DNA from: a virus
Taxonomy: Duplodnaviria; Heunggongvirae; Uroviricota; Caudoviricetes
Strand: one strand, 5' to 3'
IMG/VR virus record: IMGVR_UViG_2713896779_000020
DNA length: 13,805 bases
Part shown: positions 1,511 to 10,226 of the stretch, one piece after another
Layout: each line of letters opens with the position of its first letter
How positions within the stretch are numbered: position 1 is the stretch's first letter
Made by a program: the position numbers and the translations under genes
Notes under the pieces: generated by a model
Seen by the model: only the letters and a program-made list of their open reading frames with translations
Databases searched by the model: none
Told to the model about the DNA's origin: nothing

Positions 1511-4236
1511 TCAAAAATCAGCCTGACTCGGGAGCAGTTTTTGCCAGATGGCTGAAACGTATTTCGCCTGGTAACGTGCATCGTTCAGAGCGTTATGGCG
1601 TTCACCTTCGAATGGAATAGTCGTTCTTGCGTCGAAATCCATCACCAGTCCCAGAGCAACCATCGTTCTTACATCGCGATCATTGGTGTAACGACATGGG
1701 CAGGGGATCCCCTGCCGTTCATATGAACGGCGTAAAATCACGTTGTCGAAAGTTGCACCGTTACCCCAGACCTGAACAAAAAATTCACCGGAGTTTTCGT
1801 CGATAAATTCCCGTAATTGCAGCAGTGCATCATCTAACGGGATTTCATCGGTAAGAATGGCGGATTGCGCTTCGCGTGACTGTTTCAGCCACCACTTAAT
1901 GGTGTCCCGATCAATGACTCCGCCAGCAGTTTCCAGATCGATAGTTTTGCTGAATTCTGGCCCCATCTCTCCGGTTTGCGGATCGAAAAATATTGCACCT
2001 ATTGAGATAATCGGGGCATCAGGATTTTTTCCCATTGTTTCAAGGTCAATCATCAGATGGTGCCACAACCTGCTGGTGGATGTAATTTCACGATGACCGT
2101 TCACCTTAATTAAGGGATTTGCTGTCTCGCCACTTTCATTATCTGTGGTGTGGTAGTGATCGCCGCCACTGCCTTCCATTTCCTCCTGAGCTTCAGCCTG
2201 ATTTTCTTCATCGAATGTTTCCTGGCAGGTTGCGTCGCCCATCACCGCGCCACAATCAGGGCAGTTGCCGCCACCACTCTGACCGCAGGCGGTACAGACT
2301 TTTTCCTCTTCCTGTTGCGCTACTGGTTCGGATTGTTTCGTTTCTGGCTCGTCTTGTAACGCATTTGGGCTGTTTTGTTCCGCTTTTTGGTCGTTCTGTT
2401 CCGTTTCTGACTGGTTCTGGTTCACAGAATCGCAGGTTTCAATCCCCTTCACCCATTTCGGATCATTCGGGTCGCTAATCCCTTCAACAAATTCACCACG
2501 TGATGCAGCAAGCAATTTATCGGCGTCAGGCTGGCTGATATTGGCTGCCTGCATAATTTTGTTTACTTCGTCAGCGGTAACTTTTACCGGCTCCGGTTGT
2601 ACGGAATCTTCAGCGGTATCCACATTTTGCGGTAAGTCCGTGTATGTTCCGTTTTTGCGGGCAAGATATTCTTCTTTCGTGATTTCAGTAGCCCCGGCAG
2701 CCAGCGCCTTGTCCAGACCAGAAAGTTTGTTTGCGCGACCGTATTTTTCGCCATCCTTGTCGGTGAAGAGGAANNNNNNNNNNNNNNNNNNNNNNNNNNN
2801 NNNNNNNNNNNNNNNNNNNNNNNGCTGATATTGGCTGCCTGCATAATTTTGTTTACTTCGTCAGCGGTAACTTTTACCGGCTCTGATTGTTCGGAATCTT
2901 CAGCGGTATCCACATTTTGCGGTAAGCCCGTGTATGTGCCATTTTTTCGGGCAAAATATTCTTCTTTTGAGATTTCGGTACCGCCGGCAGCCAGCGCCTT
3001 GTCCAGACCAGAAAGTTTGTTTGCCCTGCCGTATTTTTCCCCGCCCTTATCGGTAAAGACGAAATAAAATGGTCCTTCACGCTCTACAGATGGTTCAGCT
3101 TCCACCAGGATTTCATTTTTTTGAGTATCGGATTCTGCCGTCTCCACTGGAGCAGTTTGTGCTGCTGACGGCTGGAGAGCATCAGTAGAGCTCTGGTCTG
3201 TTTCTTCATGTTCAAACACGCCCTTTGTCGTCAGGTATTCACTGATATATTTGTTCAGTGCAACGGGATCTTTGTGAATATCGATCGGACGTTCGCGAAC
3301 AAGGCCAAAAATAGTCTGACGGTCATAGCCAAGTGCTTCGGGCTGTTTGCGCATTGATGCTGAGATACGCTTCCAGTCTTCGCGATCCTTGTCGATAACC
3401 TCATTTGTCGCCCAGCGATGGATGGTACCGTCAATGTTTCCTGCATCCACATCACCGGGCCAGAGGGCGCAGGCCAGTTCATTGTCGAGTGTTTTCCATG
3501 TCTGTTTGTATTCGCGGCGAATGGCAACAGTGACAGCCCCGGTTTTTTCAGCAGCGTTTTCAGTGTTCTGTTGGTTGACTCTGGCGCGGGTGAGATCAAC
3601 AACAGACGTGTATTTTCCGGTTTCCTTGCGTTCACCTTCGCGACGTTTTTTCCAGATGCGCATCTCTGCCTGAATTTCAGGCCATTTAGCGCCAGGCTCA
3701 CATTTATGCTTAACCCACCCGATGGCATGCAGTTTAAGTTCAGGATACATGGCGTTAACTTCTGGCATTTTCATCAACGCTTCAACGATATGTCCGCCGA
3801 ATGTTGCCATGTCTTCCTGTAGTAATTCCTGTGCGCTAATCACCATATCAACGGTGATGTTTTCGCATGTGTCGAATTTAACCAGGACTGCGTTCTGTAC
3901 TTCAGGGGACAGCTTGTCAAAATTGACGTTCATCGGATCGGATTCTGGTTCGACCGGTACAAAGGAAGCTGACTCCTCATCCCAGCGGTTTTCCTGCATA
4001 TATTCGGTATCCCAGGAATCGAGGGCAGGGCGGGGTATGCCGGGTTTATCCTCGCAGACAATAAATTTATAAGCGCAGTCCTGAGCTGCCGGGAATTGCT
4101 CCAGAAATTGCCAGTGAAATTTTGCGCGTGCGCGACGCTCATCACCGGCTTCAATGGCAGTGGCCACCGCAACAGCGCTATCTTCTTTTATGGCCTGTTC
4201 GTCAGGAATAGCAGCGCAAATAAAGATTTTACTCAT
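1511..4236 (-). CDS. Large phage exonuclease (annotated in related prophages as exodeoxyribonuclease VIII-like) with a C-terminal DEDD-type 3'-5' exonuclease domain; interrupted by a 50-N gap and a duplicated 240-bp segment
   Basis: The ORF-track pieces 2584-4236 and 1511-2623 share the peptide [30 protein letters not shown] in the two repeat copies. The C-terminal part shows the three DEDD motifs (MIDLETMG; [13 protein letters not shown]; [10 protein letters not shown]). If the two repeat copies are collapsed, the two pieces join in frame into one ORF of about 812 codons. The reading frame across the N-run cannot be verified. Confidence 0.6.
2534..3063. repeat. Imperfect 240-bp direct repeat (2534-2773 and 2824-3063) flanking the N-run
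   Basis: Both copies start GCTGATATTGGCTGCCTGCATAATTTTGTTTACTTCGTCAGCGG. Constant offset of 290 nt with no indels; by my hand count about 20 mismatches over 240 bp (roughly 90% identity). Confidence 0.9.
2774..2823. other. Run of 50 N (assembly or scaffold gap, or masked bases)
   Basis: Literal n characters in the sequence. Confidence 0.99.
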
Positions 4237-4329: not shown

Positions 4330-4521
4330 TTAAAGTCCTGCCGGTATTTCGTTATTATTAGTGTGAGTAGTTTTATCTACCGGATAACAGTTACCGGGAA
4401 TTTTTTGTTCTGCTGCTGCAGCCATGCATTCTTTCATTGAACCGTATAAGCCAGTCACCAGCTCAAGAGATTCGCCGGAAACAAGATAAACTGTCAGAAC
4501 GAGTGCAAATGTTGTATTCAT
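4330..4521 (-). CDS. ydfD: Small membrane protein, YdfD-like (DUF1482-type), 63 aa
   Basis: 63-aa ORF directly downstream of dicB with a hydrophobic N-terminal segment (FALVLTVYLVSG) and a C-terminal KIPGNCYPVDK...EIPAGL. The size and position match ydfD of the Qin dicB locus as I recall it. Confidence 0.6.
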   Translation of the reverse strand: MNTTFALVLTVYLVSGESLELVTGLYGSMKECMAAAAEQKIPGNCYPVDKTTHTNNNEIPAGL

Positions 4522-4706
4522 TGTTTATATCCTTTTTGCAGCAGGTCCAGACGAGCCAGCATTGAAGGAATGCATACTTCATTTAACAGGTCCTGCTCGA
4601 GTTTTCTCTGCTTAATGGCGTCTTCAATAAATGTTTTGTCTCCAGTGATAACGCCAATTTCGAAACGAAGTTCAGACGTGCTGGCATTACATGATAACTT
4701 TTCCAT
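4518..4706 (-). CDS. dicB: Cell-division inhibitor DicB homologue (62 aa)
   Basis: The internal-ATG product MEKLSCNASTSELRFEIGVITGDKTFIEDAIKQRKLEQDLLNEVCIPSMLARLDLLQKGYKQ is the same length as E. coli K-12 DicB and shares its blocks (FEIGV, TEDAI..RK, SMLARL) as recalled. GAGGA ribosome-binding site 5' of the ATG. The longer track ORF (to 4814) would run into the dicF region. Confidence 0.8.
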   Translation of the reverse strand: MEKLSCNASTSELRFEIGVITGDKTFIEDAIKQRKLEQDLLNEVCIPSMLARLDLLQKGYKQ

Positions 4707-4885: not shown

Positions 4886-4944
4886 AAAAAAGGGCGGCAG
4901 AGCAGTCACGGAGTAAAACTGATACCGCCAAATGTCACCAGAAT
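4886..4944 (-). ncRNA. dicF: DicF small RNA homologue with intrinsic terminator tail
   Basis: The minus strand reads ATTCTGGTGACATTTGGCGGTATCAGTTTTACTCCGTGACTGCTCTGCCGCCC followed by TTTTTT. This differs at only two positions from the 53-nt K-12 DicF sequence as I remember it, and it lies directly upstream of dicB as in Qin. Confidence 0.85.
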
Positions 4945-6052: not shown

Positions 6053-6181
6053 TTAGTCGTTAGATTTTGCCGAACTGGAAAGCGCCTGTTTAAACTCACT
6101 GAAGCTGAGAGCTTCCTCGCCTTCGGCAAGGCCTTCGAAGTATTCTTCGTAAGCCTTTTCCATGATTGTGTCGAAATCCAT
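6053..6181 (-). CDS. ydfB: Small acidic protein, YdfB-like (42 aa)
   Basis: ORF below the 60-aa track threshold, found by hand: MDFDTIMEKAYEEYFEGLAEGEEALSFSEFKQALSSSAKSND. AGGTGA ribosome-binding site; the start is 1 nt after the ydfA-like stop. Size and position match ydfB of Qin as recalled. Confidence 0.5.
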   Translation of the reverse strand: MDFDTIMEKAYEEYFEGLAEGEEALSFSEFKQALSSSAKSND

Positions 6182-6182
6182 A

Positions 6183-6338
6183 TCACTCACCTGAGTTTCT
6201 TTCCAGCCAGCGACGGGCACCATTTTCGGTTTTAAACGTTTTGCTTTTGGTATACGTCATCGCGGTGAATGTACCGTCCTGGTTGGGAAACACGCCGTAC
6301 ACCAGAGATTCGTTGTTGCCAAGATCGATAGTATCCAT
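6183..6338 (-). CDS. ydfA: Small protein, YdfA-like (DUF1391-type), 51 aa
   Basis: Internal ATG at 6338 with a GAGG ribosome-binding site gives MDTIDLGNNESLVYGVFPNQDGTFTAMTYTKSKTFKTENGARRWLERNSGE. It is the first gene after the leftward promoter; size and position match ydfA of Qin as recalled. Confidence 0.5.
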   Translation of the reverse strand: MDTIDLGNNESLVYGVFPNQDGTFTAMTYTKSKTFKTENGARRWLERNSGE

Positions 6339-6519
6339 GTTGACCTCATTTCCCCTTAACGCCGGGTAGCGGAACAAAAACCTGCTGCATAGTTATTAAA
6401 GTTGAACCCTGCCGTCATGTTCATACGCCTCGGGCTGGCTACTTACCCCCTGACCACTGCCTGGTAACTCGAAGTATTGCCCGGCGTTCTGTGGGGCGGG
6501 GTGGGTGGTTGGTGTATGT

Positions 6520-6562
6520 AATCTACAATTAAAAACTGTTTTGTGTCAACAGTTTTTAATTG
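6520..6562 (-). promoter_or_regulatory. Leftward early promoter (PL-like) with overlapping palindromic operator for the ydfA-ydfB-dicF-dicB operon
   Basis: Minus strand: -35 TTGACA (6549-6544), 18-bp spacer, -10 TAGATT (6525-6520). It is embedded in a perfect palindrome CAATTAAAAACTGTT-N7-AACAGTTTTTAATTG (6526-6562). Confidence 0.55.
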
Positions 6563-6573
6563 TTGTTTTGGGC

Positions 6574-6595
6574 AAAAAAATCCCTCGAAAGAGGG
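6574..6595 (-). terminator. Intrinsic terminator ending the repressor-antitoxin-toxin operon
   Basis: The minus strand reads CCCTC-TTTC-GAGGG followed by A-TTTTTTT, located 20-40 nt downstream of the parE-type stop. Confidence 0.5.
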
Positions 6596-6614
6596 AGTAT
6601 GAAAATTGTTCAAC

Positions 6615-6902
6615 TCAGATAGAGAAGGGAAATTGTCGCCGAGAATGTGTCACGCTTACAATCTCAATGCTTGAAGCAGCTACTCTGTACAGGATTATGT
6701 AGTTAGGGTGGGTCACGATCTCTCTCAATCCAGAAACCCGTTCGCTTGGTGGATATAAGTACGGATGCTCAGATAGAGGTAATACCGATGTTTCAATGCG
6801 TATTTTTAGTCTACGTGCTGCCGGTGGGTTCTCCTTGGCGATGTAAGTTATGATCTGGCGCAAATCATCGCGAGCAGACGGTAGCCATAAAATGGGTAAC
6901 AT
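6615..6902 (-). CDS. parE: Type II toxin, RelE/ParE family (ParE2-like), 95 aa
   Basis: MLPILWLPSARDDLRQIITYIAKENPPAARRLKIRIETSVLPLSEHPYLYPPSERVSGLREIVTHPNYIILYRV... fits the ParE pattern as recalled. The start overlaps the antitoxin stop (TAATG). Confidence 0.7.
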   Translation of the reverse strand: MLPILWLPSARDDLRQIITYIAKENPPAARRLKIRIETSVLPLSEHPYLYPPSERVSGLREIVTHPNYIILYRVAASSIEIVSVTHSRRQFPFSI

Positions 6903-7093
6903 TACTCGCTCTTGTTAGTTACAGCAATTTGAGCAATAAGATTTTCCATTTCAGCCATTACCTCGTCATGTGGAATTGCGGGGCGAGTGTCTGCAAGGCT
7001 TGACGTTACTTTAGTGCGCAACCATTCGTTGTAACTGTTTTCTTGTTCGGTAGTTTCGAATTCTGAAACTATCGGAGAAAGGGCTGTACCCAT
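6902..7093 (-). CDS. paaA2: Antitoxin, PaaA2-like (ParE-associated antitoxin), 63 aa
   Basis: MGTALSPIVSEFETTEQENSYNEWLRTKVTSSLADTRPAIPHDEV... closely matches the PaaA2 sequence of E. coli O157 as I recall it (ALSPMVSEFETIEQENSYNEWLRAKV..SLAD.RPAIPHDEV). GAGGAG ribosome-binding site; immediately upstream of the toxin. Confidence 0.65.
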   Translation of the reverse strand: MGTALSPIVSEFETTEQENSYNEWLRTKVTSSLADTRPAIPHDEVMAEMENLIAQIAVTNKSE

Positions 7094-7120
7094 GGCATAA
7101 CTCCTCTTCTTGTACTGTGG

Positions 7121-7522
7121 TCACGCCCGGCGGCTTTTTTGTGCCGCCAGCCACCTAGCAATGGTTTCTTCCATTGATTTTTTCTTGTCTTTGATTTCTT
7201 GAAGCATTTTTTCTTGGTCTTCCTCAGGAAACGCACTAAAAGCTTGGAGCAGTTCGCGTTGGCGAGGACCAATTTTCATCGTGTCAGGGGTGAAAATTTG
7301 CTCACACTCTTCAGGAGGCAATAAAAACCAATGCAATGGATGCCCTGAAACCTCAACCAGTTTATCCAAACTTGAGGCTTTAGGTGTAGCCTTACCGCTG
7401 ACCCATTGTTGAACAGTTTGTTGTGTCACACCAATTCTACGGGCAAGCTCAGCCTGGCTCCATCCAGTTTCCTGAAGAAGCTTGCTGATTCTGTACATAG
7501 ATACTTCTAGGGCGCTCATCAT
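7121..7522 (-). CDS. HTH_XRE transcriptional regulator, DicA/PaaR2-like; candidate prophage repressor
   Basis: Helix-turn-helix SQAELARRIGVTQQTVQQWVSGK near the N-terminus. First gene of the operon with the antitoxin and toxin, and divergent from the cro-like gene. The start is ambiguous: 7522 (MMSALEV...) or the internal ATG at 7498 (MYRISKLLQETGW...), the latter giving a more typical HTH N-terminus. Confidence 0.7.
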   Translation of the reverse strand: MMSALEVSMYRISKLLQETGWSQAELARRIGVTQQTVQQWVSGKATPKASSLDKLVEVSGHPLHWFLLPPEECEQIFTPDTMKIGPRQRELLQAFSAFPEEDQEKMLQEIKDKKKSMEETIARWLAAQKSRRA

Positions 7523-7563
7523 TATTCAATTTTACAGGTAAATACTGTTAAAAGCACCACAAT

Positions 7564-7602
7564 AAAAAACTGTTGATTGCATACAGTTTTTTATTGTAGG
7601 CT
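7564..7602 (+). promoter_or_regulatory. Rightward early promoter (PR-like) with overlapping operator, paralogous to the leftward unit
   Basis: AAAAAACTGT-N9-ACAGTTTTTT inverted repeat (7564-7592); -35 TTGATT (7573-7578), 18-bp spacer, -10 TAGGCT (7597-7602). An extra half-site ACTGTT lies at 7544-7549. GGAGG ribosome-binding site at 7621-7625 before the cro-like ATG. Confidence 0.5.
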
Positions 7603-7630
7603 TTGCTTATAGTTTTTAGAGGAGGGCAAA

Positions 7631-7903
7631 ATGCTAGATAGCACTCGCGAAAAAATTAGGCAGAAATACACTCAGGCTGAAATAGGTCGTTATATGGGGG
7701 TCGCTCAACAGACTGTTTGGCAATGGTTTAGCTTTGGCGTTCCCCCAAAGCAGGTAATTCCGTTATGCCAACTAATGAAGTGGGAAGTTACCCCGCATGA
7801 AATCCGCCCAGATATTTATCCTAACCCAACCGACGGTTTACCTGTTGGATGTAAGGTTAACACATCAAATGCGCCGGAGTTGATTCATGAAAATCAAGCA
7901 TGA
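7631..7903 (+). CDS. Cro/YdaS-like small HTH protein (90 aa)
   Basis: Divergent from the repressor. Helix-turn-helix GRYMGVAQQTVWQW. Strong ribosome-binding site. Confidence 0.7.
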   Translation: MLDSTREKIRQKYTQAEIGRYMGVAQQTVWQWFSFGVPPKQVIPLCQLMKWEVTPHEIRPDIYPNPTDGLPVGCKVNTSNAPELIHENQA

Positions 7904-8312
7904 ACACATCCGCATGGCGATGAATGCCTGGGCGCATCCGGACGGCGAAAAAGTACCGGCTGCGAAAATTACCAAAGCGTATTTCGAGCTGGGAATGACG
8001 TTCCCGGAACTGTATGACGACAGCCATCCGGAAGCCATGGCTCGCAATACTCAGAAAATTTTCCGCTGGGTGGAGAAAGACACTCCTGATGCGGTTAAAA
8101 AAATTCAGGCGTTGTTACCAGCGATCGAAAAAGCGATGCCGCCTCCGCTGGTGGCCCGAATGCGCAGCCACAGTTCCGCTTATTTTCGGGAGTTGGTAGA
8201 GACGAAGGAACGGCTGGTGAAAGATATTGATGATTTCGTTGCATCAGCGATCGTTCTGTTCGATCAGATGAATCGTGGTGGCCCGGCAGGAAACACTCTG
8301 GCTGTGCATTAA
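7887..8312 (+). CDS. ydaT: YdaT-like protein (141 aa)
   Basis: The N-terminus MKIKHEHI matches my recollection of Rac YdaT, and it has the same position after the cro-like gene. Its start overlaps the cro-like stop by 17 nt. Confidence 0.5.
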   Translation: MKIKHEHIRMAMNAWAHPDGEKVPAAKITKAYFELGMTFPELYDDSHPEAMARNTQKIFRWVEKDTPDAVKKIQALLPAIEKAMPPPLVARMRSHSSAYFRELVETKERLVKDIDDFVASAIVLFDQMNRGGPAGNTLAVH

Positions 8313-8325
8313 TTGGGTAATAAAT

Positions 8326-8835
8326 ATGAGTAATGACAAAAAATTGACACTGAGCGTTTACGAAAACAGTCCGCACATCTGGCGTGGCGGTTTATCTGAT
8401 GTGGAGCTGGCAGAGTGGTTGATACATAAAGCTAATGCGCTGCTCTGGCGTTTGTCAGCCAGAGAACAGCGCAAGGAAACCAGAATAAAGCTGGCTGATG
8501 CAGAAGCGTGTGCCGGGCTTATTGAGGATTATACAAATCTTGGTATTTCTTCAGCAGAGAGTGATCCCATTCAGCCTCTGAGCAGGGAGTCAATCCAGCA
8601 CGCTGGTTGTATGGCACATCTTGTAACTGCTCGTCAACATGAGGTGGGTATTGGATCACTTCCGGTGGGATATTCGCTGATTCCAGAGCTGGTTGAAGCA
8701 AGAAAATCAGTTCAGAAAAAGAGAGATGACGCACTTCAATTATTGAGAGAGCACTATGGCGCGATACCAGAATGCGAACAGCATCGATACCCTGAAGGTT
8801 ATGAATGGATGCAGTCTCTTTTTGAAGTTCGCTAA
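8326..8835 (+). CDS. Hypothetical protein (169 aa from the internal ATG)
   Basis: I chose ATG 8326 (MSNDKKLTLSVYENSPHIWRGG...) rather than the track start at 8275, which overlaps ydaT-like. No motif recognised. Confidence 0.5.
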   Translation: MSNDKKLTLSVYENSPHIWRGGLSDVELAEWLIHKANALLWRLSAREQRKETRIKLADAEACAGLIEDYTNLGISSAESDPIQPLSRESIQHAGCMAHLVTARQHEVGIGSLPVGYSLIPELVEARKSVQKKRDDALQLLREHYGAIPECEQHRYPEGYEWMQSLFEVR

Positions 8836-8941
8836 TCAATATGTCGAGACGAAGGTATGTTTCGGCGCGCAGCCAGGCTCTGTAATCCGGGAGCATTTCG
8901 GGGCTGTTACACCAGCGGTTTGTTGCTGCAACATTTAATAC

Positions 8942-10226
8942 ATGAGCCTGATAAAGGCTTTTCAAAAAATACATGTCGAACCTCCTCTGGTTCTGTCGAT
9001 TGGGAACCACAGATTATATCCGGAGGAAGGTTCGGCACCAGATGAGGTAGCCATGCGTGATTACGCAAAAGTTTCTCCGCGATTCTGGCTGGGAGAAACG
9101 GGGAGAGAACTTAGAAAGGCGGGTGCAGAAGCGCAAGTTGTTGCTTTTTACCTGATGACATCCCCTCACGCAAATATGCTGGGTTTGTATTACCTGCCAG
9201 TTTTATACCTTGCTCATGAAACCGGGCTTGGTCTGGAAGGGGCTTCAAAGGGGCTTAAAAGGGCTGTTGAAGCTGGTTTTTGTAGCTATGACCATGATGC
9301 AGAGATGGTCTGGGTCCATGAAATGGCAGCCTGGCAGGTTGGGGAAACGTTGAAGCCTGGCGATAACCGTTGTGCAGGTGTCAGGAATGAGTATGCATCA
9401 TTACCTGAAAACGCTTTTCTGTCAGTGTTTTACGACAGATATAAAACGGATTTCCATCTGGATGTGAGGCGGAATAATAGCCGAAATTCGGTAAGGGGCT
9501 TCGAAGGGGCTTTTAAGGGGCTTCGAAGCCAAGAACAGGAACAGGAGCAGGAGAAAGAACAGGAACAGGACAAAAACACTATGGTTCATGGCAAAAAAAA
9601 CACCACGAACCAGGCAGGGGATGTTCAGACCGTCAATCCTGGTCAGCCAGCAGGCACGACACCGNNNNNNNNNNNNNNNNNNNNNNNNNNNNNNNNNNNN
9701 NNNNNNNNNNNNNNAAGCCGATTCAGCGTATGCGCTGAAAGCCGATTCGGGCGCTGTGCAGCAGGTGATGACCGCAGGGTCGGAGCAATCACACCAACTG
9801 CAGCAGCCTGAAGCCGATTCCGCCATTCAGCGGGAAGCCGATCGGGTAGTCCCGGAAAGCACCGGGCAGTCTGTGGGACGAGTGGATTATCCGGATGTGT
9901 TCGAACAGGTCTGGCGGGAATACCCGTTGCGTGCTGGGGCAAACCCGAAGAAATCCGCTTTCAGTGCCTGGAAGGCCAGATTGCGCGAGGGGGTGCCACC
10001 AGAGACCATGCTGGATGGTGTGAGGCGTTACGCGAGATACCTGGCGGCGACCGGGAAAGCGGGAACGGAATTTGTTCAGCGAGCGACGACGTTTTTTGGG
10101 CCGGACCGGAATTTTGAAAACCCCTGGTTGCTCCCGGTAAGCGGCACGAACAACCAGCGTTGTGTGAATCATATTTCTGAACCGGATACCGAAATTCCGC
10201 CGGGATTCAGGGGTGATGTGGCATGA
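8942..10226 (+). CDS. Replication-initiation (O-like / YdaU-type) protein with a low-complexity linker; interrupted by a 50-N run
   Basis: Track ORFs 8942-9811 and 9588-10226 are each protein-like only on their own side of the gap (N-terminal part before it, C-terminal part ...DYPDVFEQVWREYPLRAGANPKKSAFSAWKARL... after it). The stop overlaps the start of the DnaC-like gene (ATGA). Single-gene status across the gap is an inference. Confidence 0.5.
9237..9523 (+). repeat. Two clusters of three phased direct repeats AAGGGGCTT (11-bp period) inside the replication gene; candidate iterons
   Basis: Cluster 1 copies start at 9237, 9248 and 9259 (the third is degenerate). Cluster 2 copies start at 9493, 9504 and 9515. 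Confidence 0.6.
9665..9714. other. Run of 50 N (assembly or scaffold gap, or masked bases) inside the replication gene
   Basis: Literal n characters. The flanks are repeat-rich: (GAACAG)n at 9531-9572 and AAGCCGATTC-type repeats at 9715-9844. Confidence 0.99.

Follow-up and report, generated by a model that had tools for sequence, protein, structure and literature searches.

The paaR1-paaA1-parE1 operon in the probable immunity region of a lambdoid prophage of Shiga-toxigenic Escherichia coli

The DNA studied here, referred to as the window, is the complete 13,805-nucleotide stretch of the IMG/VR virus record IMGVR_UViG_2713896779_000020 (Caudoviricetes), and the system in question is a three-gene operon that encodes a repressor (PaaR1), an antitoxin (PaaA1) and a ParE-family toxin (ParE1). 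Together with its surroundings, this operon very probably makes up the immunity region of a lambdoid prophage of the Sp4/CP-933M type from Shiga-toxigenic Escherichia coli (STEC), with PaaR1 as lysogeny repressor and the toxin-antitoxin (TA) pair encoded on the same transcript, for which addiction is the most likely effect. An earlier note on this DNA read the operon correctly, including its limits (6615-7522) and gene order, and left the strand (minus for all three genes) unstated; but what it described is, judged by sequence identity, an ordinary system that had already been published.

Identity and organization of the operon

The three gene products were 100% identical to ECs_1069, ECs_1068 and ECs_1067, respectively, from prophage Sp4 of E. 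coli O157:H7 Sakai, where ECs_1069 is annotated as 'phage repressor protein'. At the DNA level, a 1.3-kb region comprising the operon was 100% identical to the chromosomes of E. coli O121 RM8352, which gave the best match of the window as a whole (99.97-100%), and of many other STEC. The CP-933M/Sakai Sp4 operon has the same gene sizes, gene order and flanks (ydfA/ydfB on the left; ydaS, ydaT, an ECs1072-family gene and replication genes on the right). No difference was found within the operon, and only the host differs.

E. coli O157:H7 carries two paaR-paaA-parE paralogues whose antitoxins do not cross-react, and PaaA1 and ParE1 were reported to be active and specific to each other (PMC4803016); the second homologue was located on CP-933M (PMC8630535). 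Exactly two places with paaA-parE were found per O157:H7 genome. The second of them is Sp12/CP-933P, where the repressor begins with MQKKE. This is the N-terminus determined experimentally for PaaR2 (PMC8630535), which validated the Sakai Sp12 copy as the PaaR2 sequence used in all comparisons. Since the Sp12 place houses the paaR2 system and each O157:H7 genome has only two such places, the operon of the window is, by elimination, paaR1-paaA1-parE1. This O157:H7 system was reportedly published by Hallez et al. in 2010.

Pfam searches with the paaR1 product gave HTH_3 (E = 2.3e-12) and, more weakly, Phage_CI_repr (7.4e-5). The paaA1 product matched PaaA2 (PF21217; 5.6e-19, 68.3 bits versus a cut-off of 27) and no second domain, and the parE1 product matched ParE_toxin (PF05016; 2.9e-17). 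ParE1 was 67% identical to the solved ParE2 (PDB 5cw7_B) over 92 amino acids (aa; E = 3e-36), and PaaA1 was 62% identical to the solved PaaA2 (PDB 3zbe_A; E = 1.4e-20). PaaR1 and PaaR2 aligned over the C-terminal 98 residues only (42% identity, E = 2e-20); in this alignment the N-terminal DNA-binding part of PaaR1 showed no similarity to PaaR2. A comparison of PaaR1 with solved structures yielded generic helix-turn-helix (HTH) matches only (434 repressor, HipB), with no PaaR2 chain among them. The earlier note had proposed aligning the three proteins to PaaR2, PaaA2 and ParE2 as a check of its assignment, and all three matched.

A Peptidase_S24 domain, as in LexA/S24-type autocleavage, was not found in PaaR1 by Pfam, which returned HTH-type domains only. 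PaaR1 is thus a CI analogue of the DicA/PaaR type, outside the lambda CI family. With DicA of the Qin prophage (E. coli K-12) it shared 28% identity over residues 22-129 (BLASTP, E = 6e-12), and the NCBIfam DicA model NF007257 was matched with 51.5 bits versus a cut-off of 101 (residues 11-130; model positions 9-131 of 135). Judged by these scores, PaaR1 is a DicA homologue, not an equivalog. A translation start of paaR1 at Met9, which would match the length of PaaR2, was ruled out: the related repressor of locus L006 has Thr at this position and starts at the upstream Met.

In the list of open reading frames (ORFs), the three co-oriented genes of 133, 63 and 95 aa follow each other closely (Table 1). 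A gap of 27 nt, which holds a GAGGAG Shine-Dalgarno sequence, separates paaR1 from paaA1, and paaA1 and parE1 overlap by one base (TAATG). Beginning 19 nt past the parE1 stop codon, the stem TCCCTC-TTTC-GAGGGA (6596-6581) is followed by T7 down to 6574, and the hairpin was seen in minimum free energy and centroid folds alike. The terminator that the earlier note had placed at the end of the operon is therefore real, and it is oriented on the minus strand. The short gap, the one-base overlap and the single terminator fit one operon. A search of Rfam over 6150-7700 returned no RNA element in or beside the operon at E ≤ 1.

Operator-like sites, promoters and comparison with known switches

A 39-bp palindrome is present twice in the window, at 6525-6563 and 7559-7597, bracketing the operon. 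Its core, AAAAACTGT-N9-ACAGTTTTT, occurred only at 6531-6557 and 7565-7591, and two matches were obtained in 0 of 200 shuffles. Each palindrome is composed of two 15-bp ACAR-N7-YTGT sites 24 bp apart, and a further site of this type (7534-7548) completes the set of three at OR, all of which fall in the 108-bp paaR1-ydaS intergenic region. Throughout the 13.8-kb window the motif was matched five times (chance mean 0.95), three times at OR and twice at OL. In locus L006, where PaaR is only 64% identical, OL and OR both have an altered sequence; the sites change together with the N-terminus of the repressor, as expected of true operators. The five sites presumably serve as PaaR1 binding sites.

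The palindrome at OL contains a leftward sigma-70 promoter, PL (TTGACA-18-TAGATT, 6549 to 6520), that was identified in a promoter scan with 10 of 12 consensus matches; OL is positioned like PL933P/OL in CP-933P (PMC8630535). A predicted PR, the counterpart of PL, takes the same place in the palindrome at OR. In front of paaR1, the predicted PRM -10 hexamer TAAAAT ends 6 nt before the ATG, and no Shine-Dalgarno sequence precedes the start. From these two features a leaderless paaR1 mRNA is predicted and is probable; the paaR2 mRNA of CP-933P was found to be leaderless by 5' RACE (PMC8630535). Counted from the predicted PRM start, the three OR sites have their centres at about -19, -44 and -68. 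These centres resemble the geometry of OR3, OR2 and OR1 in lambda, a likeness that extends to the spacing of about 24 bp and to one site being centred near -44 of the predicted PRM. Taken together, the lambdoid immunity-region features found in the window comprise a divergent repressor/cro-like gene pair, operator repeats, an OL at the leftward promoter and a CII-type activator with its operator.

The sister locus paaR2-paaA2-parE2 of CP-933P has been studied experimentally by electrophoretic mobility shift assays, footprints, reporter fusions, bistability analysis and mini-F stabilization (Jurenas et al. 2021, PMC8630535). In that immunity region, PaaR2 takes the part of CI, YdaS that of Cro and YdaT that of CII. 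Both PaaR2 and YdaS were bound to the intergenic region and acted as repressors of PR, PRM and PL, and YdaT activates PRE. The locus has an OL/PL, is bistable in expression and addictive, and stabilized a mini-F plasmid. PaaR2 is devoid of an S24 autocleavage domain, PaaA2 is labile to ClpAP and ClpXP, and ParE2 associates with the nucleoid and induces the SOS response (all PMC8630535). The statement in the earlier note that the coupling of such operons to prophage immunity is not settled is thus out of date. The TA genes do occupy the rexAB-equivalent slot named in the note, directly downstream of the repressor gene and presumably on its transcript, and for the sister locus it was stated that paaA2-parE2 replace rexA and rexB, and PaaR2 replaces CI (Prolic-Kalinsek et al. 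2023, PMC9986795).

The window and CP-933P/Sp12 have in common the three-gene operon in the same slot, the OL/PL region downstream of the toxin gene, the conserved C-terminal domain of the repressor, YdaT (86% identity) and an identical OM operator. They differ in the TA proteins (67% identity for ParE, 62% for PaaA), and the antitoxins do not cross-protect (PMC4803016). No relationship exists between the two in the operators, in the Cro analogue or in the DNA-binding domain at the N-terminus of the repressor; the published repeat consensus of CP-933P is GTTTAGTAA versus ACAR-N7-YTGT in the window. In DNA alignments with Sp12, 6349-7186 aligned with 69.5% identity and 7876-8312 with 87.6%, and the stretch between them (7187-7875) gave no alignment. 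YdaS of the window had no detectable similarity to Sp12 YdaS and is therefore regarded as immunity-specific. With its unrelated repressor DNA-binding domain, operators and Cro analogue, the locus has an immunity specificity different from that of CP-933P on the same switch design.

Compared with cI-rexA-rexB of lambda, the window shows the same succession of a repressor gene and two accessory genes expressed in the lysogen, with OR/PRM on one side and OL/PL on the other, and it likewise has a divergent cro/cII-type pair. In contrast, the proteins of the window have no sequence similarity to those of lambda, PaaR has no S24 cleavage domain, OL has two sites instead of three, and a ParE-type TA pair stands in place of the RexA/RexB sensor and channel. 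No homology of the TA proteins to RexA or RexB was detected, Pfam giving ParE and PaaA2 only, so that genomic position is all they have in common. The Qin prophage has the ydfA-ydfB...dicF-dicB operon in the same order after the repressor locus, but between dicA and ydfA it has only 166 bp and no TA pair, whereas the window has paaA1-parE1 and the terminator there. The cro-like gene of Qin is dicC, and ydaS/ydaT are missing. Canonical parDE and two-gene paaA-parE systems share with the window the ParE fold, the antitoxin gene in first position and the overlap of the genes. The pair in the window differs from them in that it is without a promoter region of its own and would ride on the repressor transcript, and PaaA, unlike ParD, has no DNA-binding domain.

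On these grounds the following scheme is proposed. In the lysogen, PaaR1 would occupy the three OR and two OL sites. It would silence rightward transcription of ydaS (cro analogue), ydaT (cII analogue) and then the replication genes, as well as leftward transcription from PL of ydfA, ydfB, dicF, dicB, the exonuclease gene and int, and it would control its own PRM and keep it running. All three operon genes would be transcribed from PRM and, after infection, also from the YdaT-dependent PRE, with transcription ending at the terminator that precedes OL/PL; paaA1-parE1 would thus hold the place of lambda rexA/rexB on the lysogenic transcript. PaaA1 would neutralize ParE1. Upon loss or replacement of the immunity region, the labile PaaA1 would decay and ParE1 would poison the cell, and this addiction would stabilize the immunity region of the prophage. 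The gene identities, the architecture, the operator-like sites and the linkage across genomes come from the sequences analysed here; DNA binding by the repressor, the leaderless start, antitoxin lability and addiction are inferred for paralogue 1 from the sister system.

Four points weigh against this interpretation. PaaR1 binding, the transcription starts and the toxicity of the exact allele are taken from the literature or from the paralogue. PR and PRM have weak hexamers: PL alone was picked up by the consensus scan, and both other promoters, below the scan threshold, were assigned by position and by homology to PL and CP-933P. For CP-933P, ParE2 was found active in neither of the two transcriptional states, and a selective advantage of the pair (addiction or other) is a proposal of the authors (PMC8630535). 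Finally, the name paaR1-paaA1-parE1 was taken from secondary sources, one of which prints 'paaR1-paaA1-parE3'.

Table 1 Features of the operon and its surroundings in the window
Feature	Position	Strand	Description	Basis
paaR1	7121-7522	-	133-aa HTH repressor, CI/DicA analogue of this prophage	Pfam; identity to ECs_1069
paaA1	6902-7093	-	63-aa antitoxin without DNA-binding domain	Pfam PaaA2; PDB 3zbe_A; identity to ECs_1068
parE1	6615-6902	-	95-aa ParE-family toxin	Pfam ParE_toxin; PDB 5cw7_B; identity to ECs_1067
Intrinsic terminator	6574-6596	-	Closes the operon	6-bp G+C-rich stem, 4-nt loop, T7
OR	7534-7597	.	Three 15-bp operator-like sites (7534-7548, 7559-7573, 7583-7597), 25 and 24 bp centre to centre	
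OL/PL	6520-6563	-	Two 15-bp operator-like sites (6525-6539, 6549-6563) forming the 39-bp palindrome, with embedded promoter	
Predicted PRM -10	7529-7534	-	TAAAAT, its end 6 nt ahead of the paaR1 start codon	Read from sequence
Predicted PR	7573-7602	+	TTGATT-18-TAGGCT, PL counterpart, points at ydaS	Same place in the palindrome as PL
ydaS	7631-7903	+	90-aa Cro analogue, divergent from paaR1	Pfam YdaS_toxin, 8e-10
ydaT	7887-8312	+	141-aa CII analogue	Pfam YdaT_toxin, 1.2e-9; 86% identical to CP-933P/Sp12 YdaT
OM (YdaT operator)	7880-7897	+	TTGATTCATGAAAATCAA, at the ydaS/ydaT junction	Sole and exact match to TTGATT-N6-AATCAA

Distribution, mosaicism and alternative roles of the TA pair

Among 5,426 complete E. 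coli genomes, the paaR1 N-terminus together with OR was found in 509 and the whole operon region in 508, so that this immunity type occurs essentially never without the TA pair. Members of the paaA-parE family, down to approximately 67% DNA identity, were present in 832 E. coli genomes (approximately 15% of the complete genomes), and TA cassette DNA of at least 99% identity was present in 436. In the four diverged loci and in phage Evi, all of which were inspected, the order was repressor, paaA, parE, with a cro-like gene divergent on the repressor side, and a ydfA-type DUF1391 gene followed parE in all four diverged chromosomal loci. A megablast search of 50,697 phage records with the operon matched the conserved 6400-6518 stretch only. 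In a tblastn search of the same records with ParE1, a single phage was retrieved, Escherichia phage Evi, which carries a type-2 system.

The TA proteins fall into two types that differ in the PaaA C-terminus and in ParE residues 8-39, and these segments probably carry the pairing specificity. Across the repressors, a single conserved C-terminal segment is combined with at least four different N-terminal domains that are unrelated or only distantly related to each other. Locus L009 (E. coli 100248) has a 97% identical repressor and 97.8% identical DNA across the paaR N-terminus and OR, but its TA cassette DNA is only 84.8% identical. Loci L006 and L007, in turn, have a type-1 TA pair behind repressors with N-termini that are 64% identical or unrelated and with the last approximately 45 residues conserved. 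The immunity region is thus a mosaic, and the conserved C-terminus of the repressor may act as a recombination joint.

Outside the enterobacteria, PaaA relatives occur beside ParE in plain two-gene cassettes in Bartonella, Acetobacteraceae, sphingomonads and a plasmid-like contig; the 36 matches, from Alpha-, Beta- and Gammaproteobacteria, have 45-77% identity to the PaaA of the E. coli prophage. Two-gene paaA-parE cassettes without an upstream paaR were found in Bartonella taylorii (positions 3001-3479 of locus L014), where ParE is 73% identical to ParE1, and in Sphingobium boeckii (2980-3442 of L033); a further one without paaR (918-1423 of L010, a contig of a metagenome-assembled genome) lies beside a large ORF, a putative plasmid replication gene. 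Such stand-alone cassettes support the idea, put forward by Jurenas et al., that the repressor operon gained its TA genes by insertion of a mobile pair (PMC8630535). The distribution implies that the paaA-parE pair has probably spread widely by horizontal transfer.

As a tentative extension of the addiction model, to which we assign limited credence, PaaA1-ParE1 might guard the immunity identity of the prophage in poly-lysogenic STEC, either by killing cells in which recombination with a co-resident heteroimmune lambdoid prophage has replaced the immunity region or by aborting superinfection like RexAB, with the TA pair and the PaaR C-terminal domain as a portable unit. In this reading, the unit has been combined with no fewer than four DNA-binding specificities that are unrelated to each other.

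The main rival explanation, slightly less probable and on balance unlikely, is that the two genes are expressed in the lysogen for abortive infection or exclusion, as a functional replacement of RexAB. Infection by another phage would then free ParE1 by shutting off host or prophage transcription or by degrading PaaA1, and the cell would die before burst. Its rexAB position on the repressor transcript, the reported lability of PaaA2 to Clp proteases, the many type II TA systems known from reviews to defend against phages, and the retention of the cassette in approximately 15% of the complete E. coli genomes, with this slot occupied in every locus inspected, would all agree with such a role. 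However, neither PaaA1 nor ParE1 matched a PADLOC model (the repressor gave non-specific HTH matches only), and no report of anti-phage activity of PaaA-ParE was found in the literature searched. The sister-system study found addiction and no spontaneous toxin activation (PMC8630535), and the cassettes outside the enterobacteria reside in non-prophage chromosomal contexts and in one plasmid-like context, which fits a generic addiction module.

It is very improbable that PaaR1 is a dedicated regulator of a tripartite TA system rather than a lysogeny repressor, with the prophage context being incidental. The system was indeed first described as a tripartite TA system (PMC8630535, PMC4803016), and the want of an S24 autocleavage domain in PaaR proteins, for which Pfam gives HTH only, would be compatible with that role. 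Nevertheless, the same operator-like sites recur far away at a second promoter, PL, from which the leftward early genes are transcribed, and paaR1 is divergent from a Cro/CII-type pair in exactly the position of dicA in Qin. Furthermore, PaaR2 represses PR and PL in CP-933P (PMC8630535), and in Bartonella and Sphingobium the paaA-parE cassette is not accompanied by a paaR gene. That the TA genes are decaying, non-functional passengers of a cryptic prophage is hardly credible: Sp4/CP-933M-type prophages are generally regarded as defective and the paralogue showed no steady-state toxin activity (PMC8630535), but both ORFs are intact, the cassette DNA is near-identical in the 436 genomes mentioned above, conservation of the core residues of ParE extends from E. 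coli to Bartonella, and PaaA1 and ParE1 were reported to be active and mutually specific (PMC4803016).

Neighbouring genes and meaning for the prophage family

To the right of the operon, ydaS and ydaT overlap by 17 nt (7887-7903), and OM (7880-7897) is situated at this junction. The YdaT operator motif TTGATT-N6-AATCAA was published for CP-933P at the same ydaS/ydaT junction, where OM is located at PRE, the leftward promoter through which YdaT activates transcription of the paaR operon (PMC9986795). Given its location on the junction in the window, YdaT bound to OM would cover the start codon of ydaT itself as well as the end of ydaS. An ORF on the opposite strand (8519-9010, minus), situated between ydaT and the replication genes, encodes an 'ECs1072 family phage-associated protein'; in RM8352 and Sakai its annotated length is 456 bp.

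On the left side, the terminator is followed by ydfA (DUF1391), ydfB, a 129-aa ORF, the DicF RNA, dicB, a DUF1482 gene, an exonuclease gene, a small DUF4224 gene and int. The DicF RNA is full-length (4892-4943, minus strand; Rfam RF00039, 77 bits, E = 6e-16) and lies upstream of dicB (4518-4706, minus strand). The first approximately 170 bp transcribed from PL (6349-6518, minus strand) are far commoner than the operon: part of a 6400-7700 query was matched in 3,398 of the 5,426 E. coli genomes, and in 10 phage records the match was confined to query positions 1-118 (6400-6517). In Sp12, which is heteroimmune, this stretch is almost identical as well. The 5' part of this PL leader is rich in C and poor in G (ACACCAACCACCCACCCCGCCCCACAG), a composition that would fit a Rho-utilization or antitermination-type leader. 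A structured RNA was ruled out at this position, as the minus strand of 6375-6515 folded worse than its shuffles (z = +1.68).

The window contains two runs of exactly 50 N (2774-2823 and 9665-9714). The first is located inside the exonuclease gene, and 2186-2773 aligned at 87% to a stretch of RM8352 that is re-entered from 2824; the second corresponds to a single base in RM8352. Both runs have the look of gaps that were left in the scaffolds of a draft assembly at internal repeats. If so, the ORFs that are split or duplicated around them (1511-2623 and 2584-4236, as well as 8942-9811 and 9588-10226) would be artefacts.

As a discovery the operon carries little weight: its proteins are identical to those of the system from 2010, and the logic of the sister locus, including the replacement of rexAB, was dissected between 2021 and 2023. 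What the present analysis adds is incremental, namely an operator/promoter map of this immunity type, the linkage figure of 508 of 509 genomes, and the joining of one TA cassette and one repressor C-terminal domain to several DNA-binding specificities. The occurrence of stand-alone paaA-parE cassettes raises the question of how they are regulated without a DNA-binding partner. The locus represents a natural second immunity type of the PaaR/YdaS/YdaT switch, which shares with the first the TA family, the CII analogue and OM and differs in the repressor DNA-binding domain, the Cro analogue and the operators. It is thus a ready partner for work on heteroimmunity and operator specificity, and it is suited to the question of whether a TA pair in an immunity region confers phage exclusion or addiction only.

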